IMG/VR virus record: IMGVR_UViG_3300043425_000245
Source of the DNA: a virus
Lineage: Duplodnaviria; Heunggongvirae; Uroviricota; Caudoviricetes
Strand: one strand, 5' to 3'
DNA length: 64,000 nucleotides
Below, piece after piece: positions 1-50,374 of the stretch. Under the pieces are notes generated by a model. That model was not told the origin of the DNA. It saw nothing but the letters and a program-made list of their open reading frames with translations, and made no database searches. Every line of letters starts with the position of its first letter. The stretch's first letter is position 1. The position numbers and the translations under genes were made by a program.

Positions 1-81
1 TGGTTGGAGAACCTAGAAGAAACGTATCACGACGTTGAACACTGGAAAATCAAGTTCCCAACTAATATCCCTCGATATTAA
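1..81 (+). CDS. 3' end of an upstream gene (partial, ...WLENLEETYHDVEHWKIKFPTNIPRY*)
   Basis: Open frame from position 1 ends at TAA 79-81 and is followed immediately by an intrinsic terminator. Confidence 0.4.
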   Translation, partial: WLENLEETYHDVEHWKIKFPTNIPRY

Positions 82-85
82 ACAA

Positions 86-107
86 AGCCCTCTCCGGAGG
101 GCTTTTT
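86..107 (+). terminator. Rho-independent terminator
   Basis: Stem AGCCCTC (86-92), loop TCCG, stem GAGGGCT (97-103), then a TTTTT run. Confidence 0.75.
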
Positions 108-161
108 AATTTGCGCCTATATATTACTACTGAACTGAAGTTCGTTATTGTGGAGAAAAAT

Positions 162-1109
162 ATGGAAACTATGAAAAGACCTAAAGCATTTTTTATGAAT
201 GGTGGAGCTGGAAGATTACTATGCTCAATTCCAGCGTTCGAAAAATATGAGCAAGAATCTGGCGATAAAGATTTTATTATCGTGTGTGAAGGTGGCACCG
301 ATGTATTCAAGGGTCACCCAACCCTAGATGCCCGCACTTATGATATTTGGCACAAGGGTTTATTCCAAGACAAATTAAAACACATGGATATTGTGTCACC
401 TGAACCATACAGAGTTTGGGAATACTACAACCAGAAGTGTAACCTATCTCAAGCGTTCGACATTGAGATCAACCAAAAGGGTATCAGAGATTTACCTAGA
501 CCTACACTACGTTTGTCTAAGGAAGAGCTGCTAACCGCTCGCGAACTAATCGCAAACATCAAGAAGCAAATCAAGAAAGAAAAGGTCATTGTGTTCCAAC
601 CGTTCGGTCGTGGAATTACACAAAAAGACGGATCGTTCGTTGACCCAACTAATCGTAGCTTTGAATTCAAAGACGTTAAGTCTATTATTAAAAAGCTACA
701 ACAAAAAGATTTTGCTGTTGTCATGATGGCTGAGTTTGGTATTGAACTTAAAGGTGAGAACCTTAAAGACGATGTTGCTATGCCTGAAATTCCAAGCGTT
801 CGTGTGTGGGCTGCTGTTATCAAATACGCAGATTATTTCTTAGGTTGCGACAGCCTTGGTCAACACTTAGCATATGCTGTTGGTAAGAAAGCAACTGTTG
901 TTACTGGTCCAACAGACCCTATAAATATCACGTATCCTAACTGTAAGGATTTTGATATTATCGACATGGGTGAACTTGATAGAGAATACGAACCAATTCG
1001 TATCACTCAAGATGAGCGTCTAATGCGCAAACATGAGATGATTATGACTATGACTGATGATATTGTAAATATTGTTATTAACTCTGTTATGGGAAAGAAA
1101 ACTAAATGA
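162..1109 (+). CDS. Glycosyltransferase family 9 (ADP-heptose:acceptor heptosyltransferase-like)
   Basis: C-terminal region ...YADYFLGCDSLGQHLAYAVGKKATVVTGPTDP... matches the WaaC/WaaF signature D(S/T)G.HLA.A.G.P.V.L(F/Y)GPTDP. Start chosen at ATG 162 (GGAG at 152-155); the ORF track starts at TTG 111. Confidence 0.65.
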   Translation: METMKRPKAFFMNGGAGRLLCSIPAFEKYEQESGDKDFIIVCEGGTDVFKGHPTLDARTYDIWHKGLFQDKLKHMDIVSPEPYRVWEYYNQKCNLSQAFDIEINQKGIRDLPRPTLRLSKEELLTARELIANIKKQIKKEKVIVFQPFGRGITQKDGSFVDPTNRSFEFKDVKSIIKKLQQKDFAVVMMAEFGIELKGENLKDDVAMPEIPSVRVWAAVIKYADYFLGCDSLGQHLAYAVGKKATVVTGPTDPINITYPNCKDFDIIDMGELDREYEPIRITQDERLMRKHEMIMTMTDDIVNIVINSVMGKKTK

Positions 1110-2971
1110 GTGAACTTAATACTGGATTGCCATTAAAAACTGGCTACATTGCAGCAATTGCCCGTGGACATAACTCAGGCGTTTGCTTACTTAAAGATGG
1201 TAAGGTTGTTTTCTCTATTGAAGAAGAACGACTATCTAGACGCAAATACGATGGTGGTCCATATGCGTCAATGGTTAAGATCTTAGACTATACTGATAAG
1301 ATTGATTACCTAGTTATCGCTCACACTCAGTCTGTTGCTGAAACTGCTGGTCGTGTCGACTTCTCAGGCGATGACGTTTACACTGGTCTTGCAAGAAAAC
1401 TAGGTTTAATTGACCGCAATGTTTTTGGACCAAATCACCCTCAAGTTGTTGACTTGAGTTTCATGCACCATAAGCTACACGCAGCTTGCGCTTTCTACCG
1501 CTCTGGTTGGGAAGATGCTGTTGCTCTTATTGTAGACGGTGCAGGTACTTTCATTGGGATGAATGTCAATAACACTCCACTAACTGTTTGGGAAGTTGAG
1601 TCTATTGTAGACTGCGCATACCCATCAAACTTTACAACTTTGTACAAACACTATGGTACTCGTGAACCAATCCCAGGTGCCTTGACTAGATTAGATTCTG
1701 CTATGTTTGGCGAACAAGGTTTAACTCATGAAGCCTTAATCAGCGACCGTGCAGGTATCGTTAAAGTTTACGAGGCTGTTACTGAGTATTGTGGATGGTC
1801 TAGCATTGAAGCTGGCAAGACAATGGGTCTATTCCCATATGGTGTTGACAACCCAGCAATTCCTAAGTTGTTTGAAACAGACAGCATTGTACCATTGTCA
1901 AACCGCAACCTAATTGTACCAACATATCCTAATGGTGCACGTGTAAATGCTGAATTGTTTGAAGCATTAAAGACAGACGAATCGTGCGTTGTTGAAGAAG
2001 AATGCAGCGATTGTTCTTGCACTCCACCTCAAGATGTAACCTTGTTACAGAACCGCAGAGACTTAGCTTACGCTTGTCAAACACAAACTCAAGACCAAGT
2101 TGTAGCTTTGATTAGAAAAGCTGCACAAATGTCTGGTAAAAAGCGTGTTGTTATTAGCGGTGGATATGGTTTGAATTGCGTTGCTAACTATCATTACCTA
2201 GACGCATTGAAAGAAGATGGTATCGAGATTTATTGCGAACCAGTTTCCAATGATGCAGGTACTGCTCTTGGCGCTGCCTTAATGTTCCACCGTGGTATCA
2301 CAAACGATGCAACAGTTGAATCTAGAGCTGAAACGCTATACCTTGGACCAGCATATTCTTACAGCGATGAAGAAATTTCTGCTGTCGCTGAAAAGTATGA
2401 CGCTGAGGTCTTAGAAGCCACTCACGCTGACGTTGTAGAGTTGTTGATTAAGAAGAACATCGTGGCGCAGTTTCAAGGTCGTTCAGAGAATGGTCCACGT
2501 GCTTTGGGTAACCGTTCGTTCTTGTTCGATCCACGCTTTGAAGATGGTAAAGACTTTGTTAACAGCGTTAAGCATCGCGAATACTTCCGTCCGTTTGCTG
2601 GTTCTATTCTTGAAGAACATGTACACGAGTGGTTTGACCTTCGCGGTATGAAGTCATCTCCAACTATGATGTACGCTGTAAACTGTCAACCAGGGATTGA
2701 AGAAAAGATTCCTTCTATTATTCACGTTGATGGTACTTGCCGCATTCAAACAGTTAACCCTGAACAGAACAAGCATTACTACGATTTGATTAATGAGTTC
2801 TACAAGAAGACTGGAACACCAATCGTATTCAACACAAGTTTCAACTTGGGTGGAGACCCTCTAGTAGAAACCTTGGACGATGCAGTTGCAACTCTTGCCA
2901 AGAGTGAAGTTGAATACCTGTACTTACCAGAATATGGTAAACTGATTAAGGTGTCCAACTACGAAGAATGA
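1106..2971 (+). CDS. NodU/CmcH/TobZ-family O-carbamoyltransferase
   Basis: N-terminal Kae1-like motif GHNSGVCLLKDGKVVFSIEEERLSRRKYDGG, compared with TobZ [27 protein letters not shown]. C-terminal motifs GRSENGPRALGNRSF, RPFAGS and PSIIHVDGTCRIQTV...IVFNTSFNLGGDPLV also match. ATGA overlap with the upstream gene. Confidence 0.85.
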   Translation: MSELNTGLPLKTGYIAAIARGHNSGVCLLKDGKVVFSIEEERLSRRKYDGGPYASMVKILDYTDKIDYLVIAHTQSVAETAGRVDFSGDDVYTGLARKLGLIDRNVFGPNHPQVVDLSFMHHKLHAACAFYRSGWEDAVALIVDGAGTFIGMNVNNTPLTVWEVESIVDCAYPSNFTTLYKHYGTREPIPGALTRLDSAMFGEQGLTHEALISDRAGIVKVYEAVTEYCGWSSIEAGKTMGLFPYGVDNPAIPKLFETDSIVPLSNRNLIVPTYPNGARVNAELFEALKTDESCVVEEECSDCSCTPPQDVTLLQNRRDLAYACQTQTQDQVVALIRKAAQMSGKKRVVISGGYGLNCVANYHYLDALKEDGIEIYCEPVSNDAGTALGAALMFHRGITNDATVESRAETLYLGPAYSYSDEEISAVAEKYDAEVLEATHADVVELLIKKNIVAQFQGRSENGPRALGNRSFLFDPRFEDGKDFVNSVKHREYFRPFAGSILEEHVHEWFDLRGMKSSPTMMYAVNCQPGIEEKIPSIIHVDGTCRIQTVNPEQNKHYYDLINEFYKKTGTPIVFNTSFNLGGDPLVETLDDAVATLAKSEVEYLYLPEYGKLIKVSNYEE

Positions 2972-3378
2972 AAATCTTTGTAAACGGATCATTTGATATT
3001 CTCCACAAGGGTCATCTAGGGATGCTGGAAACAGCGAAGTCTCTAGGTGACTTTCTTTTAGTGGCTATTGATTCAGATAGGAGAATAGCTGAATTAAAAG
3101 GTAGCGACCGCCCATTCAATAATCAAGAAAACCGTGTTGCCTTAATGGCTGCATTGAAGTGGGTAGACAAAGTCAAGGTATTTGACTCGGATGATGAACT
3201 AATAAATATCATGAGACAGTACGAACCTGACATTACATTAAAAGGTTCTGACTGGTTTGGTAAGCGTATAGTCGGTCACGAATATGCTGGTAATATTATT
3301 TTTTATGATAGAATAGATGATGAGTCAACCACAAACACCATTGAACGTTTTATTGCTAGGCGACACCTGCACCGATGA
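2968..3378 (+). CDS. D-glycero-beta-D-manno-heptose 1-phosphate adenylyltransferase (HldE domain II-like, stand-alone)
   Basis: FVNGSFDILHKGHLGMLETAKSLGDFLLVAIDSDRRIAELKGSDRPFNNQENRVALMAALKWVD aligns with E. coli HldE C-domain [64 protein letters not shown]. Confidence 0.85.
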   Translation: MKIFVNGSFDILHKGHLGMLETAKSLGDFLLVAIDSDRRIAELKGSDRPFNNQENRVALMAALKWVDKVKVFDSDDELINIMRQYEPDITLKGSDWFGKRIVGHEYAGNIIFYDRIDDESTTNTIERFIARRHLHR

Positions 3379-4075
3379 ATATTACATTGGTACTGTAAAC
3401 AGGATAAGCCCAGAAGCACCAATCCCCATTTTAGATTTCAAACACACCAAACAAACTCTTGGTATGGGTGGTAACGTTTACAACAATTTAATAAACCTTG
3501 GATGTAGCGTCACATCTTATCTTGGAGACTCTGGTGTTAAACAAAGGTTTATCGACAGCAAATCAAACCATCAACTGTTAAGGGTTGATTATCCTCCAAA
3601 ATATAAAACACAGTTACACGAGATTCAACCATTAAACTACGATCTAATTGTAGTGTCAGATTATGACAAAGGGTTTTTATCTTACGAGGATATAGCCAAA
3701 TTAAAACAACAATACACTTGCCCTATTTTTATTGATACCAAGAAAACTGACACGGCTCAGTTTGAAGGATGTTTTCTTAAAATCAACAGCTTAGAATACA
3801 GTAAACTTACGAGTCAATGTAGCGACATTATAGTGACTCATGGGTCAGAGAAAGTTGTTTTCAAGAACAAAGAATATAAAGTTCCAACTGTAGAAGCATT
3901 TGATGTTTGCGGAGCTGGAGATACTTTCCTAGCAGCACTTGCTGTTAAGTTTACCCAAACAAAGGATTGGGACGTTTCTATTGAATTTGCTATGGGTGCC
4001 TCAGCAATAACTGTAAGGCATCTTGGAGTTTATGCGCCAACGTATGAGGAGATTAATTATGAGATTACAAGGTAA
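3317..4075 (+). CDS. D-glycero-beta-D-manno-heptose 7-phosphate kinase (HldE domain I-like, PfkB family, stand-alone)
   Basis: LLLGDTCTDEYYIGTVNRISPEAPIPIL matches HldE [27 protein letters not shown]. PfkB motif VCGAGDTFLAALA matches VTGAGDTVIGVLA. The start overlaps the upstream gene by about 60 nt in another frame; exact start uncertain. Confidence 0.8.
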   Translation: MMSQPQTPLNVLLLGDTCTDEYYIGTVNRISPEAPIPILDFKHTKQTLGMGGNVYNNLINLGCSVTSYLGDSGVKQRFIDSKSNHQLLRVDYPPKYKTQLHEIQPLNYDLIVVSDYDKGFLSYEDIAKLKQQYTCPIFIDTKKTDTAQFEGCFLKINSLEYSKLTSQCSDIIVTHGSEKVVFKNKEYKVPTVEAFDVCGAGDTFLAALAVKFTQTKDWDVSIEFAMGASAITVRHLGVYAPTYEEINYEITR

Positions 4076-4424
4076 ACAAGAAAAAGGTTGGGGTCATGAA
4101 GACATCTGGGCAACCAACGATAAGTATTGTGGTAAGATGATGCACTTTAACGAGGACGCTAAGTTCTCAATGCACTTCCATAAAGACAAAGATGAAACAT
4201 GGTTTGTCATTAATGGTAAGTTTTTAGTTAGATACATAGACACAAGTAACGCTAAAATATTTGAAACTGTATTGGAACCAGGAGACGTTTGGCACAATCC
4301 GCCTCTCTTACCTCACCAGTTGTATTGTATAGAAAAAGGTACAATTTGTGAAGTCAGCACTCCAGATTCAGTTGAAGATAACTTTAGAGTTATGCCAGGT
4401 GACAGCCAGAAAGAAGAACAATGA
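4059..4424 (+). CDS. Cupin-fold protein (candidate sugar-nucleotide 3,5-epimerase or sugar-phosphate isomerase)
   Basis: Small cupin signature G.GHEDIW...HFH.DKDETWFVINGKF...EPGDVWHNPP..H. GAGGA RBS at 4046-4050 before ATG 4059. Embedded in the heptose operon with an ATGA overlap to the next gene. Confidence 0.5.
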   Translation: MRLQGKQEKGWGHEDIWATNDKYCGKMMHFNEDAKFSMHFHKDKDETWFVINGKFLVRYIDTSNAKIFETVLEPGDVWHNPPLLPHQLYCIEKGTICEVSTPDSVEDNFRVMPGDSQKEEQ

Positions 4425-5179
4425 AACTTTTAATTACAGGTTATAAGGGGTTCATCGGTAAAAATGCCGTTGAATACTTTGGAAAGAAGCACGATCTCGT
4501 ATTATACGAATGGGGTGATAAGTTTCCAGAACTAGACGGTATAGATAGAGTCTTACATTTTGGAGCTATCTCTTCAACCACTGAAACTAACGTGGAAAGA
4601 ATCATGGCTCAAAATTATGATTTTACTATCGGTCTGTTCGCTAAATGTCAAGCCAAAGGTATTCCAGTTCAGTTCTCTAGCTCGGCTTCTGTTTACGGGC
4701 AAGGCACTGAGTTCAAAGAAACTTCTAAAGTTGATCCAAAGACGCCATATGCTTGGTCAAAGTATATGGTTGAAAAGTATGCAACCAAGAATAAGCTAAA
4801 CGTTCAGTGTTTCCGTTATTTTAATGTATATGGACCACACGAAGAACATAAGGGTTCTCAAGCAAGCCCATACTATCAGTTTAAGAAACAAGCTGAGCAA
4901 AACGGTTCTATCAACGTATTCAAGGGTTCAGAGAACTATAAACGAGACTTTGTCCCAGTTCAAACAGTTCTGGAAATCCAAGAAAAGTTTATGACTATCC
5001 CAGAAGCTGGTATCTGGAACATCGGTACAGGTGAGGTAAAGAGTTTTATGGAGATCGCTGAGAGTTTCAACGTTCCCATTAATCAAGTTCCAATGCCTAA
5101 CTGGTTATCGGTTAGTTACCAAACCTACACTCGCGCCGACCTTACTAAGTTGCAACAAACCTTGCAGTTATATAAATAG
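4421..5179 (+). CDS. ADP-L-glycero-D-manno-heptose 6-epimerase-like (HldD/RfaD family, SDR)
   Basis: N-terminal LITGYKGFIGKN Rossmann motif. FNVYGPHEEHKGSQASPYYQFKKQAEQNGSINVFKGSENYKRDFVPVQTV aligns with HldD [44 protein letters not shown]. Confidence 0.8.
   Translation: MKLLITGYKGFIGKNAVEYFGKKHDLVLYEWGDKFPELDGIDRVLHFGAISSTTETNVERIMAQNYDFTIGLFAKCQAKGIPVQFSSSASVYGQGTEFKETSKVDPKTPYAWSKYMVEKYATKNKLNVQCFRYFNVYGPHEEHKGSQASPYYQFKKQAEQNGSINVFKGSENYKRDFVPVQTVLEIQEKFMTIPEAGIWNIGTGEVKSFMEIAESFNVPINQVPMPNWLSVSYQTYTRADLTKLQQTLQLYK
5171..5178 (+). promoter_or_regulatory. T4-type late promoter box TATAAATA upstream of gp13
   Basis: Exact TATAAATA about 30 nt upstream of ATG 5209. gp55 late sigma factor is encoded in this window. 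Confidence 0.5.
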
Positions 5180-5208
5180 ATAATTAAATAACTTTCAGGC
5201 AAACTACT

Positions 5209-6174
5209 ATGGCAGTTGCATCTAGAGAACAATTAAAACAATATGCGCTAAGAGCACTAGGTGCTCCAGTGTTAGAGATCAACGTTGAAAATAGTCAATT
5301 AGAAGACCGTCTAGATGAAGCGTTGGAATACTGGAATTTATACCACTACGAGGGTGTAGAGCAGATGTATTTGAAGCACCGCATTCGTGCTTCCACCCTA
5401 AATCTTCAATCAAATAATGGTACACAATTTGAAATCGCAGAAGTGATTACAGGTGTAACTTCTGGGGCTAAAGCCAAGGTTATCCCAGAATCTGGAAGCC
5501 AACCAACTAACGATAAGATCTTTGTTAGAAACGTTGTTGGTACTTTCTTGCCAGGAGAAACTATTACTGGTTCTTCTGGGCACACTGCCACTCTAGCTGA
5601 TTCCAACCCAGCCACTCTTGGCGAATACGATCTAAAATATATCACTGTACCTGATTATGTGTACGGTGTGACTAAGGTATTGAACATCGGTCAGGCTTCT
5701 TCTTCTAAGAACATCTTTGACTTACAATACCAACTACGTTTGAACGACTTGTATGACTTAACTTCTACAAGTATTGTTTATTACAAGACTACAATGAGCC
5801 ACTTGGCTATGTTGGACTTGGAATTGAACGGGCACGTCTTGTATCGTTTTAACCGTATGCAGAACCGTATGTACTTGGACATTAACTGGGAAACTGATGT
5901 TATCATCGGCGACTATATCTTAATCCAAGGATATCGTGCAATTGACCCGTCAACATACGTTCGTGTATTCTCCGAGCCATGGTTGAAACATTATGTTACA
6001 GCTTTGTTTAAAAAGCAATGGGCAGTTAACATTAAAAAGTTCTCTGGTCTACAATTGCCAGGCGGCGTGACTCTTGATGGTGATAAGCTATATGCCGAAG
6101 CTGTTAAAGAGATTGAAGACCTAGAAGACGAACTACAAACAAAATCAGCACCGCTTGACTTTTTCTTGGGGTAA
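5209..6174 (+). CDS. Neck protein gp13
   Basis: N-terminal ...LRALGAPVLEINVENSQLEDRLDEALEYWNLYHYEG... matches T4 gp13 ...[36 protein letters not shown]. C-terminal SGLQLPGGVTLDGDKLYAEA matches QGMMLPGGVTIDGDRFYSEG. Confidence 0.85.
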   Translation: MAVASREQLKQYALRALGAPVLEINVENSQLEDRLDEALEYWNLYHYEGVEQMYLKHRIRASTLNLQSNNGTQFEIAEVITGVTSGAKAKVIPESGSQPTNDKIFVRNVVGTFLPGETITGSSGHTATLADSNPATLGEYDLKYITVPDYVYGVTKVLNIGQASSSKNIFDLQYQLRLNDLYDLTSTSIVYYKTTMSHLAMLDLELNGHVLYRFNRMQNRMYLDINWETDVIIGDYILIQGYRAIDPSTYVRVFSEPWLKHYVTALFKKQWAVNIKKFSGLQLPGGVTLDGDKLYAEAVKEIEDLEDELQTKSAPLDFFLG

Positions 6175-6177
6175 TCA

Positions 6178-6927
6178 ATGGCAACAAATCCATACTTTAC
6201 CCAAGGTACTTCTAGCGAACAAGATCTTATCGAAGACATCATCATTGAGTCTTTGAAGATCTACGGTAAAGACTTCTTATACATTCCTCGCACTCAAGTA
6301 TCAACAGACCGTATCTTCGGCGAAGATCGTTTGTCTAAATTTGAACACGCATATCCAATCGAGATGTACTTTGATAACATCGAGAGTTTGGCTGGTCAAG
6401 GTGCTATGATTCAGAAGTTCGGTTTACTAATGGATCAGTCTGCAACTCTAACTGTTGCCCGTAAACGATGGACTGACCTAATCGGCGTCCATGGAACAAC
6501 GTATCTACCAAACAGACCAAACGAAGGTGATTTAATTTATTACCCTTTGACTAAAGGTTTGTTTGAAATCAAATTCGTTAAACACCAAGAGCCTTTCTAT
6601 CAACTAGGTCGCTTGTATACTTACAAGCTGGACGTTGAACTATTCCAATACAGTAGCGAGAAGATTGATACTGGTGTCCCTGAAGTTGATGTATTTGAAA
6701 ACCTCAAGTCGTTTGACGTTACTGTAAACCCTGAGGTTGAAGACGCTACTGGATTTGCAGATAATCAAACTTTCAAAGATAAAGCAGTATCTGAAAACGC
6801 TTTGTTCGACGAGTCTAACCCATTTGGTGAAGTTGGCACTGGTGGAGTTCCAGGATACTCGCGTGCCGCTGATACATCTACATTAACTGCTGATCAGACA
6901 ACAATTAAAACAGATAGGACAGTATAA
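6178..6927 (+). CDS. Neck protein gp14 (by position and size)
   Basis: Immediately follows gp13, as in T4-like genomes. Size 249 aa. Direct motif recognition is weak. Confidence 0.55.
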   Translation: MATNPYFTQGTSSEQDLIEDIIIESLKIYGKDFLYIPRTQVSTDRIFGEDRLSKFEHAYPIEMYFDNIESLAGQGAMIQKFGLLMDQSATLTVARKRWTDLIGVHGTTYLPNRPNEGDLIYYPLTKGLFEIKFVKHQEPFYQLGRLYTYKLDVELFQYSSEKIDTGVPEVDVFENLKSFDVTVNPEVEDATGFADNQTFKDKAVSENALFDESNPFGEVGTGGVPGYSRAADTSTLTADQTTIKTDRTV

Positions 6928-8207
6928 TGGCTAAGCAAACAGTCAACCTTGGAACCATGGCAGACAATAAGTCTGGTGATCCACTACGCACAGCGTTTGA
7001 AAAGATTAACGAAAACTTTGACGAGTTATATGCTAGTACACATAACACCAGTTCTTTGGTAAAACAAGGTGCGGGTTTAGAAGAACTTGGAGTTTTACAA
7101 GATACATACCAAGAATTGGTTATTCAGTTTGAAGAACAGTTGATGTCGATGGAGGGTGAAGAAGGATATCCTTTTGGCGTTCAGTTGCCAATAACAAATC
7201 CAACAGCAACATACGAAACGCTAATGAACCTTGGACCAAATACTACTCCTGGATTTGTATCATTAGCTGTAATTGCCAACACCATGGTGCAAGCGTATAC
7301 TGCATTTCAAGAAGCAGTTGTAAGCGCAGAAATTACTTCTGGCGATCTAACTCTAAGATTCAATAACCTTGGAGAGTTGGTATTCCCTGATGGCACTAAA
7401 CAAACAACAGCTTTTGTAGAAGAAACACCTAGCCTGATTAGCAGCGGTAATACTGCTCCAGGATCAGCTGTTGTGGCAAATGAGACATCTGTTGATGTTA
7501 ACTTCTCAGGTTCTGGTACAAAGTTTAAGTTTAAATCAAACGGAGATCTACAAGTTAGTAGTGGAGACATTGTAAACCAAAGTAACGTTTCTCTGTTTGC
7601 TAATAAAGTAACTGAACCAACGCCCTCTACGTTTGGCACTATCGCAACTGTTATATCTTCTCCAACACAGAATGTAAACTGGACTGCAGGTACTGGAATT
7701 GCTGGTGGTGTTTCTAATTCTAATATTGGTATCAGTATTACTAATGGTGTTCCTACTTTCACTATTAACGATGCAGGTGTGCCAGGAAGGTACGTTGGTG
7801 AGCAAATCTTTAATATCACAGGTTCTACTTTCGGCGGCACTGATGGTATTGACGATATGGCTATTATAGTTGACACTGTATCAGATAATGTAACTGAACT
7901 AGATGTAACTAAAGATGTGCACTACCTTGAAGAAGGCGATTATAACTTACCAGATGGTGTAGAAGGTAAAGTTATACAATTCGTCCCAAAGACAACTAGA
8001 AATGTTTGGTTGAGAGTAGCAAACCTAGCTTACATGGCTTACAATGAACAATCTCAATCATTTAATTTAAGAACTATTGGAACTGACTACTGGTTCAACC
8101 CATTCTATGTTCAAGATCAAGGTAGTGGTAGCCTTCAGTCTCAAGTAGTAACAACTGCCGTATTTATTGGTGGCGCTTGGAACTTCTCTAACGGAGTTAT
8201 TGATTAA
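6927..8207 (+). CDS. Extra structural fibre-like protein inserted between gp14 and gp15
   Basis: N-terminal GDPLRTAFEKINENFDELY motif resembles conserved N-terminal motifs of phage fibre/spike proteins. T/S/G/N-rich beta-type composition. No canonical T4 counterpart at this position. Confidence 0.35.
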   Translation: MAKQTVNLGTMADNKSGDPLRTAFEKINENFDELYASTHNTSSLVKQGAGLEELGVLQDTYQELVIQFEEQLMSMEGEEGYPFGVQLPITNPTATYETLMNLGPNTTPGFVSLAVIANTMVQAYTAFQEAVVSAEITSGDLTLRFNNLGELVFPDGTKQTTAFVEETPSLISSGNTAPGSAVVANETSVDVNFSGSGTKFKFKSNGDLQVSSGDIVNQSNVSLFANKVTEPTPSTFGTIATVISSPTQNVNWTAGTGIAGGVSNSNIGISITNGVPTFTINDAGVPGRYVGEQIFNITGSTFGGTDGIDDMAIIVDTVSDNVTELDVTKDVHYLEEGDYNLPDGVEGKVIQFVPKTTRNVWLRVANLAYMAYNEQSQSFNLRTIGTDYWFNPFYVQDQGSGSLQSQVVTTAVFIGGAWNFSNGVID

Positions 8208-8977
8208 TGTTAAACAATAGTGTATTTTATCACGGGATAGTTAGAAAATGTATTATCGGCTTCGGTCGTTTGTTTTCTAACATCTACATTGACCGCAGGA
8301 TTAGTGATCCAGTGAATGGTGAACAGGTTCAACGCATTCACGTTCCATTGTCTTACGCTCCGAAAGAAAAATGGTTAGTTCGTTTGGATGAAGACCCAAC
8401 ATTAGAGAACCACACTCTTACATCTCTACCAAGAATGTCTTTTGAAATTATCGCATATACTTACGATTCTTTGCGTAAAGTAAACCGTATGCAATATATG
8501 AAAAATGATGGTGTATCCACTAATGGTGATACTTCTACATCAATGGTAAGAACTCCAGTTCCATACAACATTGATATGTCTTTGTATATTGTAACAAAGA
8601 CTCAAGAAGACGCTCTTCAAATTATTGAGCAGATTCTTCCATGGTTTACTCCAGAATACTCTATGACTATTAATGCTGTAGATGATATGGGCATTAAGCT
8701 AGACGTTCCAGTCGTTCTAAACTCTGTTATTGTATCAGACGAATTTGAAGGTACGTTCCAACAACGTCGTTTTGTTATCCACACAATTAACTTCCAGATG
8801 AAAGTTTCTATGTTTGGTCCAGTTTCTCAACAAGGTGTTATTCTTCAAACTGACGCTAACGTTGGTATGAACACCAACCCAGCAACTCCAATTGATGTAA
8901 CTTACCGAGCAACGGGTGAATTTGGTCCAAATGGTGAACATATAATCACCAATGATGGGTGGATTAACGAACTCTAA
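8207..8977 (+). CDS. Tail sheath stabiliser / tail completion protein gp15
   Basis: GFGRLFSNIYIDRR...IHVPLSYAPKEKWL matches T4 gp15 LMGDLFSNIQIKRQ...IRVPITYASKEHFM. IEQILPWFTPEYS matches VEQILPYFQPHFN. Confidence 0.8.
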   Translation: MLNNSVFYHGIVRKCIIGFGRLFSNIYIDRRISDPVNGEQVQRIHVPLSYAPKEKWLVRLDEDPTLENHTLTSLPRMSFEIIAYTYDSLRKVNRMQYMKNDGVSTNGDTSTSMVRTPVPYNIDMSLYIVTKTQEDALQIIEQILPWFTPEYSMTINAVDDMGIKLDVPVVLNSVIVSDEFEGTFQQRRFVIHTINFQMKVSMFGPVSQQGVILQTDANVGMNTNPATPIDVTYRATGEFGPNGEHIITNDGWINEL

Positions 8978-26715: not shown

Positions 26716-28851
26716 ATGGAAATTAAGGCAACCGACCTTTCCGCTCGACTGCTTGCTACTGAGAACCTGACTGTTGTTCGTAGCAACGCACCGACTGCGT
26801 CTTTTGATATCAAATCACGTGTACTGACCCTTCCGATGTGGAAGGACATGACCCCTGAGATCGAGGATATGCTCGTGGGTCATGAAGTTGGTCACGCTCT
26901 CTATACCCTCGACAAATACATCAAACCTATTCAGGAACAACCCAAGCTGAAATCATACATGAACATTCTTGAAGATGTTCGTATTGAGAAGCTCATCAAA
27001 CGCAAGTATCCTGGTCTGCGCAAGCGCATGAACGAAGGTTACAAGCAACTCAACGACAAGGACTTCTTTGGTGTTTCCAAAGTTGCTTCTCTGGACGCAC
27101 TCAACCTTATTGACCGCATCAACCTGTATTTCAAAGCAGGTTTCCAGTGTGGTGTTAAGTTTGACCAAGACGAAAAGCCTTTCGTCAACCGTGCCGAACG
27201 CACTGAATCTATTGACGAAGTTATCGAACTTGCTAAAGACATCTACAAGTTTGCTAAAGAGCAAGCCGAAAAGAAAAAGCAAGAACGTGCAGCTGCTGGC
27301 GAAGATGAAGGTGATGATGGTGACGGTGAACCTGATTATATCGACGACCTCGATATTGACGGCGACGACTGGCATGCAGAAGAAGATGACGGTGAACCCG
27401 AAGAAGGTGAAAAGTCTGCCAAGGGTAAAGGTGCTGGTCAAAATCAAACTGAAGAAGATCTTGAGTCTGTGACCGACCGTGCGTTCGCTGAACGTCTTGA
27501 AGAGTTGGCTGATCAATCTACTGAGTATCGCTATCATAAAGTTGAACCGCTTGGCTTTGATCCAATCATTGGTTACAAACAAGTTTTGAAAGACTTGGAC
27601 TTTGACTTCACCAACGTTTCCGTTGGTTCATATTATCACAACCGTGTTTATGGTTCTAAGTCTGAAGAACAATTCGCTCAAAAGCAAACTGCTGCTGTAA
27701 ACAAGTTTAAGACTGACTCCGTGAGTTCGGTTAACTACTTGGTCAAAGAATTTGAAATGAAGAAGTCTGCTCAGCTGTATAAGCGTGCTCAGGTTTCTAA
27801 GATTGGTTCTTTGGATATGCGTAAGGTTTTTGCCTACCAACTGCAAGACGACTTGTTCAAGCGTGTGACTACTATCCCACAGGGTAAAAACCACGGCATG
27901 ATTATGATGATCGACTGGTCTGGTTCCATGGCTAACGTCATTGACGATACAATCAAACAGGTTATCAACCTTGCTATGTTCTGTAACAAGGCTCAGATTC
28001 CATACCGTGTGTTTGCTTTCACTAGCCAGTACGTTGACCGTGACAGCGATGTGTATCATAAACGATACAAGAGGTCTTCGCAACTTCGCGATCGTATCAT
28101 TAAGGACTCGAATGATTCCGTGCTCGATCCTGGTCACTTCAGCCTGTTGGAATTGTTCTCTAACCGTATGTCTACTTCTGAGTTCAATGGTATGATCAAG
28201 AAGTTGCTTGACCCACGTGTTTTCTGGCACAAGGGTTACGACCTTGGTGGTACTCCGTTGAACGAAGCCTTGTTGTGGGTTTACAGCAACATCGGCGAGT
28301 ACATGAAGAACAATCGTATCGAAAAGATGAACTTCATTACTTTGTCTGATGGTTGTGGTGGCTCGTTGCAAGCGTCTGGTGGTATCAGCCGTTATAGCTA
28401 TGGCAACAAGGTTAAGCACCTTGTGCGCGACCCTGTGACAAAGAAGACTTATCCGTTCGGTTACGATGCTGGTCAACAAACTGAAACCTTGTTGAAGATG
28501 ATCAAAGACCGTTACGACATCCGCACGATTGGTTTCTACATCTGTTCAAACCGTCGTAGTAGTTTGAATGCTGCCATCAAAGATAACCTGTTTGGATTTA
28601 ATGGTAATGTAGAGAACGTTATTGACGAGATGCGTAAAGAGTTCAAACGTCAAGGTTTTTACTCTATGCAAGGTACTGGTCGCGACGACTTGTTCATTGT
28701 CCCAGCTGAGTCGACTAAAATCGACGAAAGCGAACTGATTGTTGAATCGGATATGTCGGCTCGTCGTTTGGCTACAAATCTTGGAAAATTCCTGAATACC
28801 AAGAAAACTAGCCGAATCTTGCTGAGCCGATTCATCGGGTACGTTGCCTAA
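26716..28851 (+). CDS. CobT-like protein (vWA domain with acidic D/E-rich linker)
   Basis: Acidic stretch EDEGDDGDGEPDYIDDLDIDGDDWHAEEDDGEPEEGE plus C-terminal vWA-like MIDWSGSM (DxSxS MIDAS). Paired with a CobS-like AAA+ gene. Confidence 0.6.
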   Translation: MEIKATDLSARLLATENLTVVRSNAPTASFDIKSRVLTLPMWKDMTPEIEDMLVGHEVGHALYTLDKYIKPIQEQPKLKSYMNILEDVRIEKLIKRKYPGLRKRMNEGYKQLNDKDFFGVSKVASLDALNLIDRINLYFKAGFQCGVKFDQDEKPFVNRAERTESIDEVIELAKDIYKFAKEQAEKKKQERAAAGEDEGDDGDGEPDYIDDLDIDGDDWHAEEDDGEPEEGEKSAKGKGAGQNQTEEDLESVTDRAFAERLEELADQSTEYRYHKVEPLGFDPIIGYKQVLKDLDFDFTNVSVGSYYHNRVYGSKSEEQFAQKQTAAVNKFKTDSVSSVNYLVKEFEMKKSAQLYKRAQVSKIGSLDMRKVFAYQLQDDLFKRVTTIPQGKNHGMIMMIDWSGSMANVIDDTIKQVINLAMFCNKAQIPYRVFAFTSQYVDRDSDVYHKRYKRSSQLRDRIIKDSNDSVLDPGHFSLLELFSNRMSTSEFNGMIKKLLDPRVFWHKGYDLGGTPLNEALLWVYSNIGEYMKNNRIEKMNFITLSDGCGGSLQASGGISRYSYGNKVKHLVRDPVTKKTYPFGYDAGQQTETLLKMIKDRYDIRTIGFYICSNRRSSLNAAIKDNLFGFNGNVENVIDEMRKEFKRQGFYSMQGTGRDDLFIVPAESTKIDESELIVESDMSARRLATNLGKFLNTKKTSRILLSRFIGYVA

Positions 28852-28890
28852 GCCTGTAGGAGTAAGGCTCTTGAGGTCTCAAAAAAGAGC

Positions 28891-28919
28891 TTTACTTTTA
28901 TTCCAAAAACAGGTATAAT
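28891..28919 (+). promoter_or_regulatory. Early sigma70-like promoter (TTTACT-N17-TATAAT)
   Basis: Same family. Preceded by an imperfect hairpin at 28867-28890. Confidence 0.55.
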
Positions 28920-28940
28920 ACTTGTATAGTCTGATAAATT

Positions 28941-30095
28941 ATGGAGAATTTGATGAGTAAAGACACCCTGTTTCAAAGCGAGTTCGAGGCTAAGATGAAT
29001 GAAATGTACCCTGACGCACTGTCCAGCGGTACTGTAAAGAATCAAGAATTGCTGTCAGTTATGAAAGCACTTGGTACGACTAAGCAACCAAAGTGGTTGA
29101 TGGTCAATAAAGTAGGTCGTGGCTTGTATGCTGTCTCTGGTAGCAAGTCCAATGTTGTTATGAAGGAAGAACCCGTGAGTTCATTTGAAGTTGACTATAC
29201 GAACACTGAGTCGTTGATCCCCAAGAAAGACCCTAATTTTGTTCCATTCGGTAACTTTACCGATCTTGAGAACATCATCAAGTCTCAAATCTTTTACCCT
29301 GCTTACATTTCTGGTCCAACTGGTAATGGTAAGTCCACGATGGTGGAACAGATTTGTGCCAAGCACAAACGTCCCCTGATTCGTGTCAACCTTAACATGA
29401 TGGTTGACGAAGAACAACTGATTGGTTCCAAGACCTTGCAAGAAGGCAACGTTGAGATCGTTGAAGGACCAGTTCTTATCGCTATGCGCTCTGGCACTAC
29501 TCTGTTGCTGGACGAAATTGACGCAGGTGCTGCTAACACCCTGCTTTGCTTGCAACCTATTCTCGAGGGCAAGCCATACTACTTCAAGCTGAAGAATGAG
29601 ATGATCGTTCCAGCCAAGGGTTTTAACATTATCGCCACTGCCAACACCAAAGGTAAAGGTTCAGACGATGGTCGCTATATTGGTACCAACATTCTGAACG
29701 AAGCCTTCTTGGAGCGTTTCGCTGTTACGTTCAACCAAGAATATCCTTCAGCTAAGATTGAAGGTAAGATTGTTGAAAACCTGATGACCTCGTACGAATG
29801 TCTGGATAAAACCTTCGCCGAAAACTTGGTGAAGTGGGCTGATGCTATCCGCAAGACTTTCGATGACGGTGGTGTTGATGAAACAATTACGACTCGTCGT
29901 ATGACCCACATCGTTCGTGCCTTTGCGATCTTCAAGAAACAAGATAAGGCTATCGAACTTTGTTGCAATCGCTTCGATGCTGCAACGAAAGCTGCATTCA
30001 TCGACTTGTATGACAAGATTGCAAACCCTGAGCCTGAAGTGGTCATGGCACCACCGATCGCTGCAAACCCAGAATCGGAAGAAATTCCGTTCTAA
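28941..30095 (+). CDS. CobS-like AAA+ ATPase (MoxR family)
   Basis: Walker A YISGPTGNGKST, Walker B LLLDEIDA, MoxR-like context with CobT. Alternative start ATG 28953. Confidence 0.7.
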   Translation: MENLMSKDTLFQSEFEAKMNEMYPDALSSGTVKNQELLSVMKALGTTKQPKWLMVNKVGRGLYAVSGSKSNVVMKEEPVSSFEVDYTNTESLIPKKDPNFVPFGNFTDLENIIKSQIFYPAYISGPTGNGKSTMVEQICAKHKRPLIRVNLNMMVDEEQLIGSKTLQEGNVEIVEGPVLIAMRSGTTLLLDEIDAGAANTLLCLQPILEGKPYYFKLKNEMIVPAKGFNIIATANTKGKGSDDGRYIGTNILNEAFLERFAVTFNQEYPSAKIEGKIVENLMTSYECLDKTFAENLVKWADAIRKTFDDGGVDETITTRRMTHIVRAFAIFKKQDKAIELCCNRFDAATKAAFIDLYDKIANPEPEVVMAPPIAANPESEEIPF

Positions 30096-35695: not shown

Positions 35696-36178
35696 ATGAC
35701 AAGCAAACAATTCATCCCTTCGTTCTTTAGTCAAGACGCTTTCAAGGACTTTGATAAGTTCTTCGTAGGATTCGACGACCAATTGGTAAAGATGCAGAAA
35801 CTGCACGACGACATTACCAAGAACATCCCCAACTATCCTCCATACAACATCAAGAAGATTGATGAGACTCATTACGTCATTGAGATGGCTGTCGCTGGCT
35901 TTGGTCAGACTGACTTAGACATCGAGATTGATGGTGGTAAGTTGATCGTCAAGGGAAATGTTAATACAACTGAACCAGAAGAAAACTTCTTATTCAAGGG
36001 TATTGCTGCTCGTGCGTTCACTCGTACTTTCGCACTTAACGACCAAGTGGAAGTTAAGGATGCTGAAATCTTCAATGGTATGCTTAAGATCGCTCTTGAG
36101 CGTCTTATCCCAGAAGAAAAGAAAGCTAAGAAAGTCGCAGTCAAAGAACGTGGCGGAAAGCAATTCTTGAACGACTAA
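35696..36178 (+). CDS. Small heat-shock protein (IbpA/Hsp20, alpha-crystallin family)
   Basis: PPYNIKKIDETHYVIEMAVAGFGQTDLDIEIDGGKLIVKG...LERLIPEEKKAKKVAV aligns with IbpA [39 protein letters not shown]...LERVIPEAKKPRRIEI. Confidence 0.9.
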   Translation: MTSKQFIPSFFSQDAFKDFDKFFVGFDDQLVKMQKLHDDITKNIPNYPPYNIKKIDETHYVIEMAVAGFGQTDLDIEIDGGKLIVKGNVNTTEPEENFLFKGIAARAFTRTFALNDQVEVKDAEIFNGMLKIALERLIPEEKKAKKVAVKERGGKQFLND

Positions 36179-46899: not shown

Positions 46900-48273
46900 A
46901 TGAGTATTGATGCTGGAAGAAATGTGAAGGTAGTTGTATTAGAAGCCCCAGAGGTTGTGCCTCGCCCAGATTTAGTTGGTACATGGTTGGATGAAACTCA
47001 TTACCACACACTGGTTGAGTCTGATATGGATTTGTACTTGCCTGCAAAGTGCGCCACAGACTTATCTGATCCAGATTGCAACAAGCAATGTAGTGGTTGC
47101 GCAAAAGGTCTTGATGAACGTAACATCGTTTTCAAGTTCCGTAAGAACTACTTCAGTGATGAAATGACAAAGTCTGCTTACGAAGGTCTTCGTGACGCAG
47201 CTACTGAAACTCAGAACCGTGGTACTGCTGCTGGTCCACGTGGTGAGAAGCTACAAGGTCGCGACTGGGTTACAGCGTATCAATGGGATATTATTGAAGC
47301 CTTTAAGAAGGGTGCTGGTAACTTGTTGGGTGAAGACCCGATTGAAGCTATCCAAACTAAATATGCCGAAGGTCGTGACCAAGCGTCTAACCGTGCTCAA
47401 GTATGGCTCCGCGATTCAGTTGCAGATGCTGGGTTCCAATTTGATGACTGGGTTGAAACAACTCGCCGTAAACCTGCAGCTGAAGCGTCAGCTGATGCAG
47501 CTTGGGTTGAAGACAATCTAATCTCTAAGACTACTTACGCAAACCCAGTGAACTCTGGTATTGCTGGTTGGTACGATCGTTATCCACGTATCCCTTATGG
47601 TCGTGCAACTTCTTACACTGAGAAGCAATTCGATAAGTTCAAGAAGTCTTACCCATACCTTCAGCATCTGTCTAAAGCGTTCGCTGAATTGTTACCATGG
47701 CGTTATGGCAACCAGAAAGCCGCTGCGGATAAGATTGATCCACGCTTCTTGGTCCCAAATACTCCATTCAGTACAATTACTGTAAACCGTAACTTCAGAA
47801 CTGCAGCCCACTATGACCCCGCAAATATGGATGATGGTTTCGCTAATATCTGCGTGTTTAGTAACTCTGATAATTATAGAGGTGCTTACTTGGTATTCCC
47901 CGAGATTGGTTATGCTGTTAACATTCGTCCAGGTGATTTACTGTTCGTTAATAACATGGCTGGTCTGCATGGTAATACTGAATTGATTCTGGATGACCCT
48001 AATGCTGAACGTATCTCTATCATTGCATTCTTCCACGAAGGTATGTTGACTCTTGGTTCTATGGAGTATGAAAATGCTCGTCGTAAGTTCGTTGATCACT
48101 GCAAGAACGATGTTAACAACCCTCACTATCGCCCACGCTTTAACGGTGTATACGCTGGAATGTGGGAAAGCCAAGAGTGGTATGACTTCTGTAAGAAAGA
48201 AGTTGGCGAAGCAGAAACCTTGAAGATGCATCCAGAATCTAATGCTTCTTCACTAGATGAGTTCTTTGCCTAA
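46900..48273 (+). CDS. TET/JBP-family 2OG-Fe(II) dioxygenase (5-methylpyrimidine or thymine oxidase) with N-terminal Cys-cluster region
   Basis: AAHYDPANMDDGFANICVFSN gives H-x-D-x-x-N (TET2 AHRDLHNMQNGSTLVCTL). LHGNTELI matches THGSILIE. ERISIIAFFH matches TET2 NRISLVFYQH (2OG-binding Arg and terminal His). N-terminal CATDLSDPDCNKQCSGC cysteine cluster. Confidence 0.75.
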   Translation: MSIDAGRNVKVVVLEAPEVVPRPDLVGTWLDETHYHTLVESDMDLYLPAKCATDLSDPDCNKQCSGCAKGLDERNIVFKFRKNYFSDEMTKSAYEGLRDAATETQNRGTAAGPRGEKLQGRDWVTAYQWDIIEAFKKGAGNLLGEDPIEAIQTKYAEGRDQASNRAQVWLRDSVADAGFQFDDWVETTRRKPAAEASADAAWVEDNLISKTTYANPVNSGIAGWYDRYPRIPYGRATSYTEKQFDKFKKSYPYLQHLSKAFAELLPWRYGNQKAAADKIDPRFLVPNTPFSTITVNRNFRTAAHYDPANMDDGFANICVFSNSDNYRGAYLVFPEIGYAVNIRPGDLLFVNNMAGLHGNTELILDDPNAERISIIAFFHEGMLTLGSMEYENARRKFVDHCKNDVNNPHYRPRFNGVYAGMWESQEWYDFCKKEVGEAETLKMHPESNASSLDEFFA

Positions 48274-49836: not shown

Positions 49837-50374
49837 GTGTACTCGTGACCAATTCATCAAAGCTATCTCTGATGATAAGGCTGACAAGTTTGCTAAGACT
49901 TTCGTGGCCAAAGCAGACATGCAGGAACAGTGGGATGATTGTATCGGTGCCTTCAACGAAGAAGGTGAACTGATGGCTGCTATCATTACCACTATCTCTA
50001 AGCGTAAACCTTTCGTTGCTAATCTACAGCTGCTTCACACCTTTGCTAAACACAGGGGTCAGGGAGCAGCTAAAGCGTTATGTGAAGCATCACTTCGTCA
50101 TGTTAAGAGTAAGCAAGCGTTGTACTTTCGTGTATCGTCAGAACCAGAATCAGTTGGCTTCTATGAGAAGATTGGTTTCAAGTTCTGGGGTAAACAAAAG
50201 TCTGGTTGTCAGTTGAGTATTTTCCGAATTGATGGCGATACCTTCTTCGAGGGAGACTACGACTATACAGACCAGATGATCAACGGAGCCATCCATAAAA
50301 AGGGAAAAGGTGGGTGTGTAGAGGTATTTGACCTCACCGAAGCCCAGAAACCCCTGACTCTAGAAGGGTTTTGA
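49823..50374 (+). CDS. GNAT-fold acetyltransferase
   Basis: HTFAKHRGQGAAKALCEASL (R-x-x-G-x-A motif A). ...FYEKIGF typical GNAT C-terminus. TTG start in the ORF track; the true start may be downstream. Confidence 0.5.
   Translation: MKLNKCTRDQFIKAISDDKADKFAKTFVAKADMQEQWDDCIGAFNEEGELMAAIITTISKRKPFVANLQLLHTFAKHRGQGAAKALCEASLRHVKSKQALYFRVSSEPESVGFYEKIGFKFWGKQKSGCQLSIFRIDGDTFFEGDYDYTDQMINGAIHKKGKGGCVEVFDLTEAQKPLTLEGF

Follow-up and report, generated by a model that had tools for sequence, protein, structure and literature searches.

The stretch of DNA analysed here, a 64,000-nucleotide window of an uncultured marine T4-like phage (Caudoviricetes; IMG/VR record IMGVR_UViG_3300043425_000245), carries on its plus strand an operon of six open reading frames (ORF1 to ORF6, positions 162–5179). 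The operon is real and well conserved. Cyanomyovirus genomes have long been annotated with this cassette, of which the window holds a new and divergent version, so it is not new as a gene set. Comparison of related loci resolves the cassette into a fixed core, ORF1 (a transferase-like protein of the GT9 fold) and ORF2 (an O-carbamoyltransferase), which stands in the tail-fibre module, and a variable module of heptose-supply genes. We propose that T4-like aquatic phages and some Vibrio podoviruses heptosylate or carbamoyl-heptosylate their own fibres by means of an O-carbamoyltransferase and a GT9-fold enzyme in which Arg replaces the catalytic Asp, and that where the host lacks heptose they carry a full ADP-heptose pathway in which a cupin takes the place of GmhA. 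We give this composite proposal a probability of roughly one in four; its parts differ in strength and are graded below.

The division into core and supply modules comes from a comparison of 84 ORF1 loci taken from IMG/VR, from JGI/Logan contigs and from two annotated cyanophage regions. In 84/84 loci the carbamoyltransferase gene adjoins ORF1, and the gene for a 210-residue protein (f2) lies immediately 5' of ORF1 in 81/84. The conserved order is a fibre gene, two small proteins, two to three Cys/Gly-rich proteins, f2, ORF1, ORF2, f9, f8 and a giant fibre gene. Heptose genes stand beside the ORF1-ORF2 pair in a minority of loci. One common contig type was followed past its 10-kb flank for another 10 kb by way of the downstream gene f11, which led to baseplate, neck and sheath genes and to no heptose genes, and a kinase-based scan of IMG/VR returned only the source contig. 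The core itself varies by addition: 11–12 loci have between the ORF1 and ORF2 homologues a gene for a 287-residue protein whose N-terminal GCSFS motif brings to mind SGNH/GDSL esterases or acyltransferases, and 28 further loci have a second ORF1 paralogue after the carbamoyltransferase gene. Distant ORF1 homologues occur in the Vibrio podoviruses SBP1 and K479, where they lie between tail or tail-fibre genes without carbamoyltransferase or heptose genes.

All six operon proteins fall in PHROG families. A megablast search with positions 1–5300 found no match among GenBank phages, and relatives are detectable at the protein level only; tblastn recovered the six genes in the same order in S-CAM1, S-CAM3, S-SSM7/S-SSM6a, Sf-FS3, P-SSM2/P-SSM5 and single-cell-derived marine viruses. 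The preliminary description of this DNA had regarded a heptose pathway in a T4-like late region as unusual and had known phage sugar-modification systems as using glucose or arabinose. Neither statement holds. The cassette is annotated in S-SSM7, P-SSM2, S-CAM1 and S-CAM3, and such genes have been discussed before: Sullivan et al. (2010) noted that T4-GC 304, 305, 307 and 308 (nucleotidyltransferase, kinase, cupin and epimerase) co-occur in P-SSM2, S-SM2 and S-SSM7, and asked whether these are functional lipopolysaccharide (LPS) genes or stuffer DNA (PMC3037559), and Zaragoza-Solas et al. (2020) described, for pelagimyophages and cyanomyophages, a tail-fibre 'host recognition cluster' with rfaE and glycosyltransferase genes and proposed modification of the host O-chain (PMC7029224). 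A gene cluster from a metavirome, furthermore, yields heptose on 5-hydroxymethylcytosine (5hmC; bioRxiv 10.1101/2023.12.21.572611). Beyond this DNA-glycosylation preprint we found no literature on experimentally tested phage heptose pathways.

ORF1 (162–1109, plus strand; phrog_8954) encodes a protein of 312–315 residues whose predicted structure (pLDDT, the predicted local distance difference test score, of 83) has the two Rossmann domains of a GT-B fold and lies closest to solved GT9 structures. GT9 structures rank first by two methods, and the top 29 Foldseek matches are all GT9, WaaC, WaaF and a Veillonella GT9 being among the fold matches. Searches at the sequence level returned less. Pfam gave no family match, the NCBIfam heptosyltransferase III model scored 19 bits (cut-off 170), the threshold of the GT9 family PF01075 was not reached, and a profile of the ORF1 family searched against PDB sequences found no solved GT9 and nothing else relevant; some homologues at 68–70% identity to ORF1 carry a precomputed PF01075 match. 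The earlier assignment of ORF1 as GT9 heptosyltransferase-like thus stands for the fold and the donor motif and fails for a sequence match above the PF01075 or NCBIfam threshold.

The two halves of the protein differ in what they share with E. coli heptosyltransferases. In hhalign comparisons with WaaC/F/Q/U only the C-terminal domain was aligned (probability 93%), with D227, H232 and GPTDP of ORF1 opposite D261, H266 and GPTDP of WaaC. These residues are invariant in 114 family members, and the C-terminal donor motif GCDSxGQH...GPTDP is retained. For the N-terminal acceptor domain, profile-profile comparison detected no similarity to LPS heptosyltransferases. Here ORF1 has an NGGxGR motif with an invariant Arg15 where, by topology and manual or forced alignment, WaaC has ..SSMGD, ending in its catalytic Asp13. 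The forced N-terminal alignment is itself non-significant (probability 0.2%); together with the topology (strand 1, loop, helix 1) it puts Arg15 at Asp13, and Arg15 probably occupies that position. The family comprises 486 clusters among 1.84 billion representatives, and its bacterial relatives amount to 8 contigs of metagenome-assembled genomes among 185,579 species genomes, probably mis-binned phage. As far as these searches define it, the ORF1 family is small and phage-restricted.

ORF2 (1106–2971, plus strand) is a two-domain O-carbamoyltransferase of the NodU/CmcH/TobZ/GdmN family, with a Kae1-like N domain and a YrdC-like C domain. The family assignment of the preliminary description was borne out for both domains, which score well above their Pfam cut-offs (Carbam_trans_N, PF02543, 77 bits against 24, 3e-21; Carbam_trans_C, PF16861, 192 bits against 27, 5e-57). 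Comparison by phmmer with 7xb6, GdmN, NovN and TobZ gave E values from 9e-53 to 4e-39 over residues 314–609, with the HHxxH motif aligned. The N-terminal domain is more divergent and has a Cys-rich insert, and the NodU equivalog model scores 135 bits where 1000 are needed. The clade of carbamoyltransferases linked to ORF1 (at least 44% identity) is found in ORF1-bearing phages only. A carbamoylated heptose is a natural structure, 7-O-carbamoyl-heptose occurring in the LPS core of Pseudomonas aeruginosa.

The supply module encodes, as two stand-alone proteins, a predicted heptose-1-phosphate adenylyltransferase resembling domain II of HldE (ORF3, 2968–3378, plus strand) and a shortened putative heptose-7-phosphate kinase of the PfkB type resembling domain I (ORF4, 3320–4075, plus strand), followed after the cupin gene by a 252-residue HldD (RfaD)-like ADP-glycero-manno-heptose 6-epimerase (ORF6, 4421–5179, plus strand). 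For all three the heptose-specific NCBIfam models score best, yet all three scores lie under the equivalog cut-offs. ORF3 matches TIGR02199 at 117 bits (5e-34; cut-off 181.5; next unrelated family 63 bits), is 37% identical to E. coli HldE 343–470 and has an HKGH sequence (HxGH motif) and a C-terminal ..DDESTT. ORF4 matches TIGR02198 at 136 bits (1e-39; cut-off 345; ribokinase 49 bits) and is 27% identical to E. coli HldE 12–299, with internal deletions and the GAGD motif kept. ORF6 matches TIGR02197 at 193 bits (5e-57; cut-off 274.6; GalE 62 bits) and, across 251 aligned residues, has 36% identity to E. coli RfaD; it is about 58 residues shorter, with GxxGxxG, Ser, YxxxK and HKGS conserved. 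These margins favour a heptose-specific assignment of the HldE- and HldD-like genes in preference to generic ribokinase, cytidylyltransferase or GalE families. The sequence (F/L)xxGRSTT is the STTR5 hallmark of nucleotide-promiscuous heptose nucleotidyltransferases (PMC11573728). ORF3 has Glu in place of the STTR5 arginine, and ADP-heptose is therefore its expected product.

The window contains no recognised 7-phosphatase: tblastn searches of it with E. coli GmhA, a phage GmhB and the cyanophage mini-HAD were all without a match, as were searches for Nudix, SGNH and psbA genes. The missing 7-phosphatase may sit elsewhere in the 168-kb genome or come from the host. Relatives encode either a mini-HAD protein (TIGR01689-like) or a true GmhB (NF006506, 139 bits), so that kinase, phosphatase, nucleotidyltransferase and epimerase are all accounted for among them. 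The product called 'phosphoheptose isomerase' in GenBank for P-SSM2, S-CAM1 and S-SSM7, encoded at L002 16024–16368 (PSSM2_311), L001 12916–13239 and L095 20720–21055, is a capless HAD phosphatase of about 110 residues, with a DxDGT motif and its best match to TIGR01689, a capsule biosynthesis phosphatase; the GenBank name looks wrong, and the protein probably stands in for GmhB. Several loci (L060, L086, L119 and L011–L014) have a gene for a Nudix hydrolase, which could act on ADP-sugars, next to the heptose genes or just past the giant fibre gene.

The distribution of the supply genes bears on the sugar donor. Among cyanophage isolates, all genomes with ORF1 have the kinase as well, the sole record without it being a 4-kb fragment; the kinase is present without ORF1 in S-SM2, S-T4, P-TIM68 and Sf-CH5/8. 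Vibrio and Aeromonas make their own ADP-heptose, and phages of these genera carry the ORF1-like gene alone. Cyanobacterial LPS is without heptose and without 3-deoxy-D-manno-octulosonate (Kdo; PMC4390846), and therefore the canonical acceptor and the donor of GT9 enzymes would both be absent from cyanobacterial hosts. Taken with the conserved GT9 donor motif, this host distribution supports ADP-heptose as the likely donor of ORF1, and heptose availability in the host would explain why the supply module is optional.

ORF5 (4059–4424, plus strand) encodes a single-domain cupin of 121 residues. It matches Cupin_1/2 at about 1e-7 to 1e-8 and, weakly, PF01050 (phosphomannose isomerase, PMI; E 4.5e-4) and PF07385 (lyxose isomerase); many homologues carry a precomputed PF01050 match, and the JGI name is 'mannose-6-phosphate isomerase-like'. 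An HxH..E..H metal-ligand pattern is invariant across the alignment of the family. Cupin aldose-ketose isomerases typically have ligands of this kind, and RmlC does not. The preliminary description had thought of an RmlC-type sugar 3,5-epimerase; with no RmlC-family match, matches confined to Cupin_1/2 and metal cupins of the PDB, and the ligand pattern invariant, that candidate was rejected. Its gene identities held for five of the six genes.

Two readings of the cupin remain to be weighed. The first is that ORF5 acts as a sedoheptulose-7-phosphate isomerase, non-homologous to GmhA and replacing it. The argument is threefold: the metal ligands are invariant, the cupin travels with the kinase and the nucleotidyltransferase, and no GmhA was found. 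Among the 53 cupin loci flanked by 3 kb or more of sequence on each side, the kinase lies within 4 kb in 41 and the nucleotidyltransferase in 39; minimal trios of nucleotidyltransferase, kinase and cupin stand in unrelated large phage contigs without any epimerase; and a SIS-type GmhA was not found in any of about 170 fetched loci. The ligands, the weak profile matches, the JGI name and the D-lyxose and mannose isomerases among the structural neighbours would suit an aldose-ketose isomerase with a manno-configured product. We found no published literature on a cupin-type sedoheptulose-7-phosphate isomerase, and judge this assignment, made from sequence and gene neighbourhood, to be evenly poised. 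The second reading is that the cupin modifies a sugar nucleotide, as a 3- or 3,5-epimerase or ketoisomerase acting on ADP-heptose in the manner of CapF, or is an unrelated metalloenzyme, the host supplying the first step. The structural neighbours allow for it: D-lyxose and mannose isomerases are among them, but oxalate decarboxylase, KdgF and the CapF cupin domain score equally, and the fold search does not discriminate. Gene content also speaks for it. A sister phage 85% identical in nucleotide sequence retains ORF1, ORF2, the cupin and gp13 and has no ORF3, ORF4 or ORF6 at the locus, and about a quarter of the cupin loci have no kinase and nucleotidyltransferase nearby (neither in about 9/53 well-flanked loci, about 14 overall). 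The PHROGs label of the cupin family is 'cysteine dioxygenase'. Against a modifier stand the trios without epimerase, the lack of GmhA in the fetched loci, the isomerase-type ligands and the weak phosphomannose- and lyxose-isomerase matches; moreover, a host that supplied GmhA would normally supply HldE too, making the phage kinase and nucleotidyltransferase redundant. A modifying or unrelated cupin is a serious possibility that we hold to be less than probable.

With the cupin read as an isomerase, family membership suggests the following course of reactions. ORF5 would convert sedoheptulose-7-phosphate to D-glycero-D-manno-heptose-7-phosphate and ORF4 would phosphorylate this to the β-1,7-bisphosphate. 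A phosphatase not encoded in the window (mini-HAD or GmhB in relatives) would strip the 7-phosphate, after which ORF3 would form ADP-D,D-heptose and ORF6 would epimerise C6 to give ADP-activated L-glycero-β-D-manno-heptose. ORF1, as a phage-specific GT9-fold enzyme, would transfer the heptose, and ORF2 would O-carbamoylate a hydroxyl of the sugar at the expense of carbamoyl phosphate and ATP. Phages whose hosts cannot make ADP-heptose available would carry the heptose-supply genes as an accessory. The sugar-supply layer of this scheme is well supported, its predicted chemistry following from the enzyme families. Profile, pairwise and fold evidence supports the gene assignments, and the earlier proposal also finds support: a GT9-like transferase would receive L-glycero-D-manno-heptose in nucleotide-activated form, and carbamoylation would decorate the sugar.

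As the acceptor of the sugar we favour the phage's own fibre or other virion proteins over the host envelope, while holding virion glycosylation to be somewhat short of an even chance and leaving a residual share to acceptors not discussed here. It is favoured because the ORF1-ORF2 pair is a constant part of the fibre block throughout a large clade of aquatic T4-like phages and the gene's position among fibre genes is fixed in two phage lineages that are unrelated, because the ORF1 family is phage-restricted, because its acceptor domain shares nothing detectable with LPS heptosyltransferases and because cyanobacterial hosts are without the canonical acceptor.

The nearest competitor is remodelling of the host envelope, in which ORF1 and ORF2 would add carbamoyl-heptose to LPS, capsule or a lipid-linked glycan and so block superinfection or keep progeny from sticking to debris. 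LPS cores are the substrate of most GT9 enzymes that have been characterised, and ORF1 matches WaaC, WaaF and the Veillonella GT9 in fold. MurG-type GT-B enzymes bind the diphosphate of the acceptor with a Gly-rich G-loop, which the GGxGR loop of ORF1 resembles. The second ORF1 paralogue or SGNH-type gene of some loci suggests assembly of a decorated oligosaccharide, carbamoyl-heptose is known from the P. aeruginosa LPS core mentioned above, and a terminator separates ORF1 from the fibre genes. An envelope target is also the standard interpretation of the 'LPS genes' of marine T4-like phages (PMC3037559, PMC7029224). Against it, the cultured relatives infect marine Synechococcus and Prochlorococcus, whose LPS contains neither Kdo nor heptose (PMC4390846) and so does not offer the canonical acceptor, and the acceptor domain of ORF1 is unlike that of LPS heptosyltransferases, probably without the catalytic Asp. 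The ORF1 family, being phage-restricted, is not recently host-derived; it occurs in phages of very different hosts, always adjoining tail genes, and its position is fixed in the fibre block, not hypervariable. We consider envelope remodelling unlikely, though a tenable account.

Fibre heptosylation, for its part, has to be held against a number of observations that weigh against it. Gene position near the fibres is circumstantial, auxiliary genes often sitting there. An intrinsic-terminator-like hairpin (84–105, plus strand; 9-bp stem with five GC pairs, followed by a T-run) parts ORF1 from f2 and the fibre genes upstream, and a motif scan found no late-promoter motif upstream of ORF1, so that co-expression with the fibres does not follow. 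Most metagenomic ORF1-ORF2 loci have no heptose genes within 10–20 kb; the sister phage described above keeps the core and the cupin without the other supply genes, some cupin loci stand apart from kinase and nucleotidyltransferase, and the window itself has no 7-phosphatase. Given the Arg at the Asp13 position, the mechanism of ORF1 and even its activity are uncertain, and its GGxGR loop could bind a phosphorylated acceptor, for example a lipid-linked one. Finally, ORF1 is without the extra length and, by inspection, without the CxxC of the protein-heptosylating enzymes TibC and AAH.

DNA hypermodification, raised in the preliminary description, fared far worse. Here ORF1 would heptosylate a hydroxymethylated base made by the TET/JBP dioxygenase encoded at 46900, and ORF2 would carbamoylate the sugar. 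The window does encode such a dioxygenase, with glutamine amidotransferase and GNAT neighbours; GT-B enzymes can act on DNA, as T4 β-glucosyltransferase (T4 β-GT) does; and the metavirome gene cluster yields both heptose and di-heptose on 5hmC (bioRxiv 10.1101/2023.12.21.572611). However, the cassette lies 42 kb from the TET gene, the ORF1-ORF2 pair has its fixed place in the fibre module, and no phage record contains homologues of both ORF1 and the TET protein (TET homologues being those of Cr30, DLP_6, S-CBWM1, HTVC112P and others). The DNA heptosyltransferase of that preprint is T4-β-GT-like, stands beside the dioxygenase and has as partners only a bifunctional HAD/APH enzyme and a cytidylyltransferase in place of an HldE/HldD set; the structural matches of ORF1 are to GT9, not to T4 β-GT. 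A TET-linked DNA acceptor was rejected on the lack of co-occurrence, the distance and the fold, and is very improbable.

The TET block (46900–50374) is itself a candidate DNA hypermodification cassette. The dioxygenase has 457 residues, with the Tet_JBP domain at residues 236–380 and a 235-residue N-terminal part without assignment, and its gene lies 3' of a gp41-like helicase gene. It is followed by genes for a class-II glutamine amidotransferase (48273–48980), a 300-residue protein without a family match (48934–49836) and a GNAT acetyltransferase (49823–50374). The closest relatives of the TET protein are those of Caulobacter phage Cr30 and Stenotrophomonas phage DLP_6, and no glycosyltransferase was recognised beside it.

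That the cassette is inert 'stuffer DNA', as raised by Sullivan et al. (PMC3037559), or that ORF1, probably lacking the GT9 catalytic Asp, is a non-catalytic structural protein that binds a sugar nucleotide or glycan, is just as remote: the ratio of nonsynonymous to synonymous substitution rates (dN/dS) is 0.02–0.06 in the core pair and does not exceed about 0.11 in the other operon genes, more than 100 sequences preserve the donor-site and active-site motifs, and the operon is tightly coupled, with synteny conserved over hundreds of contigs, on which grounds stuffer DNA was rejected.

The selection estimates were made against an 85%-identical relative (ORF1 0.02, ORF2 0.06, other operon genes at most about 0.11, with gp14 at 0.023 for comparison), and values this low place ORF1 and ORF2 under strong purifying selection. 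The GC content of the operon is that of the remaining window. Analysis of the reading frames and their junctions confirmed six translationally coupled genes directly 5' of the neck genes: ATGA overlaps join ORF1/2, ORF2/3 and ORF5/6, and longer overlaps join ORF3/4 and ORF4/5. The likely start of ORF1 is the ATG at 162, preceded by a GGAG Shine-Dalgarno sequence; other possible starts are at 111 (TTG), 150 (GTG) and 171 (ATG), of which gene callers also pick 150 and 171. ORF4 has a second possible start, an ATG at 3317. ORF5, open from 4023, likely starts at the ATG at 4059 (MRLQGK...), in agreement with a 121-residue database protein (P0121). The downstream limit of the operon is a T4-type late-promoter motif, TATAAATA (5171–5178, plus strand), which overlaps the stop of ORF6 31 nt 5' of gp13 and recurs 5' of two further late genes, at 17668 and 20173.

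Upstream, the window opens with the 3' end of f2 (1–80, plus strand). On the 168-kb source contig (JGI Ga0485304_000007) ORF1 is preceded by genes for a giant protein (DUF4815), a fibre protein (Peptidase_S74), small proteins, three Cys/Gly-rich paralogues and f2. The three tandem paralogues, of about 325 residues each (CCCGxGLPGNxGAY..., C-terminal GAVRIKFIAG), and the 210-residue f2, which together occupy 5389–8976 of the contig sequence L003, precede ORF1 in nearly all related loci. Pfam gave no matches for the fibre-module neighbours f2, the Cys/Gly-rich proteins, f4, f6, f8, f9 and the SGNH-like protein, and tblastn of f2 against phages found none.

Downstream follow, in direct succession, gp13, gp14, gp15, terminase and sheath genes, beginning with the neck genes gp13 (5209–6174) and gp14 (6178–6927), both within 5209–6927 on the plus strand. 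gp13 contains an insert of about 90 residues (residues ~57–145) that resembles tail-fibre proteins (phrog_9851) and part of the 'polymorphic membrane protein' gene of S-CAM1. Between gp14 and gp15 lies a 426-residue ORF (6927–8207) with a weakly gp9/gp10-like N-terminus, which is missing from the 85%-identical relative L007 and whose C-terminal part (~7414–8203) gives way to a longer and different sequence in contig L005, which is 98% identical; the ORF has the look of a neck protein that is fibre-like and hypervariable.

Elsewhere in the window, two large proteins (57104–58882 and 59320–61800) have matches to PHROGs families 3041 and 395, which are labelled 'cytidyltransferase'. A cyanophage family annotated as a putative cytidylyltransferase, T4-GC190, is reportedly a virion structural protein. 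CobT-like (phrog_459), CobS-like (phrog_249) and Hsp20 genes (26716–30095 and 35696–36178) are 'cyanophage core' genes that leave the host unsettled. At about 63% identity, the highest to any isolate, the major capsid protein is equally distant from those of cyanophages, pelagiphage HTVC008M and Methylophilales phage Melnitz, and no tRNA genes were found.

The gene set has been annotated in cyanophages for some 20 years; the example in the window, from a T4-like phage not in culture, is a divergent one. The gain lies in replacing the label 'LPS genes' with three hypotheses: a fibre-module pair of transferase and carbamoyltransferase that probably uses ADP-heptose, a supply module carried for heptose-less hosts, and a cupin acting as the isomerase. 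Fibre heptosylation, if true, would add the most abundant marine myoviruses to the viruses with glycosylated virions and bear on host range, adsorption and recognition; a cupin isomerase, if true, would be a new analogue of GmhA. More speculatively, the pathway would draw on sedoheptulose-7-phosphate, the product of the cyanophage transaldolase, and so tie a hallmark auxiliary metabolic gene to virion or surface chemistry.

Among known systems the closest is the cyanophage cassette (PSSM2_307–313, SSSM7_120–133, S170810_109–115; P-SSM5 T4-GC 302–308), to which the window proteins are 37–56% identical in amino acid sequence (S-CAM1/P-SSM2), ORF2 reaching 63% in Sf-FS3. S-SSM7 shares the arrangement of the window, with tail-fibre genes on one side of the cassette and gp13/gp14 directly downstream, and in P-SSM2, S-CAM1 and S-CAM3 the cassette likewise stands among tail-fibre genes. 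The cyanophages differ in having a mini-HAD phosphatase gene between the kinase and the cupin, an inverted HldD gene where the window has all six genes on one strand, and extra genes for a 2-oxoglutarate-dependent oxygenase, a halogenase and a second carbamoyltransferase, all of which the window cassette is without.

The kinase, nucleotidyltransferase and epimerase are homologous to those of the bacterial ADP-heptose pathway (GmhA, HldE, GmhB, HldD), at 27%, 37% and 36% identity to E. coli HldE domain I, HldE domain II and RfaD. HldE is a single protein in bacteria and two shortened stand-alone proteins in the phage, and where bacteria have a SIS-type GmhA and a GmhB the window has a cupin in place of GmhA and no GmhB. 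ORF2 has both family domains in common with TobZ, GdmN, NovN, NodU and CmcH, its N domain being more divergent. With WaaC and WaaF (CAZy GT9) ORF1 shares the fold and the donor-binding motif, and its acceptor domain is unrecognisable by sequence. The bacterial autotransporter heptosyltransferases (BAHT; TibC, AAH) have about 400 residues, an N-terminal extension and a Cys-based iron-finger, and form dodecamers. ORF1 is some 70–90 residues shorter, has no CxxC or iron-finger that could be seen on inspection and shows no similarity to them at the sequence level; the analogy drawn in the preliminary description survives for the fold, and membership of ORF1 in the BAHT family was rejected.

The metavirome 5hmC clusters have in common with the window a phage-encoded supply of nucleotide-heptose and a GT-B transferase, and the window also has a TET/JBP gene. 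They differ in the enzymes and their arrangement: a T4-β-GT-like transferase beside the dioxygenase, with a HAD/APH fusion and a cytidylyltransferase, against a GT9-like ORF1 42 kb from the TET gene. Virus-encoded virion glycosylation is known from the capsid and tail of mycobacteriophages, the fibrils of Mimivirus and the capsid glycans of chloroviruses. The likeness to these is one of concept, a virus that brings its own nucleotide-sugar pathway and transferases and so need not rely on the host to decorate surface proteins of the virion; sugars, enzyme families and virus lineages all differ.

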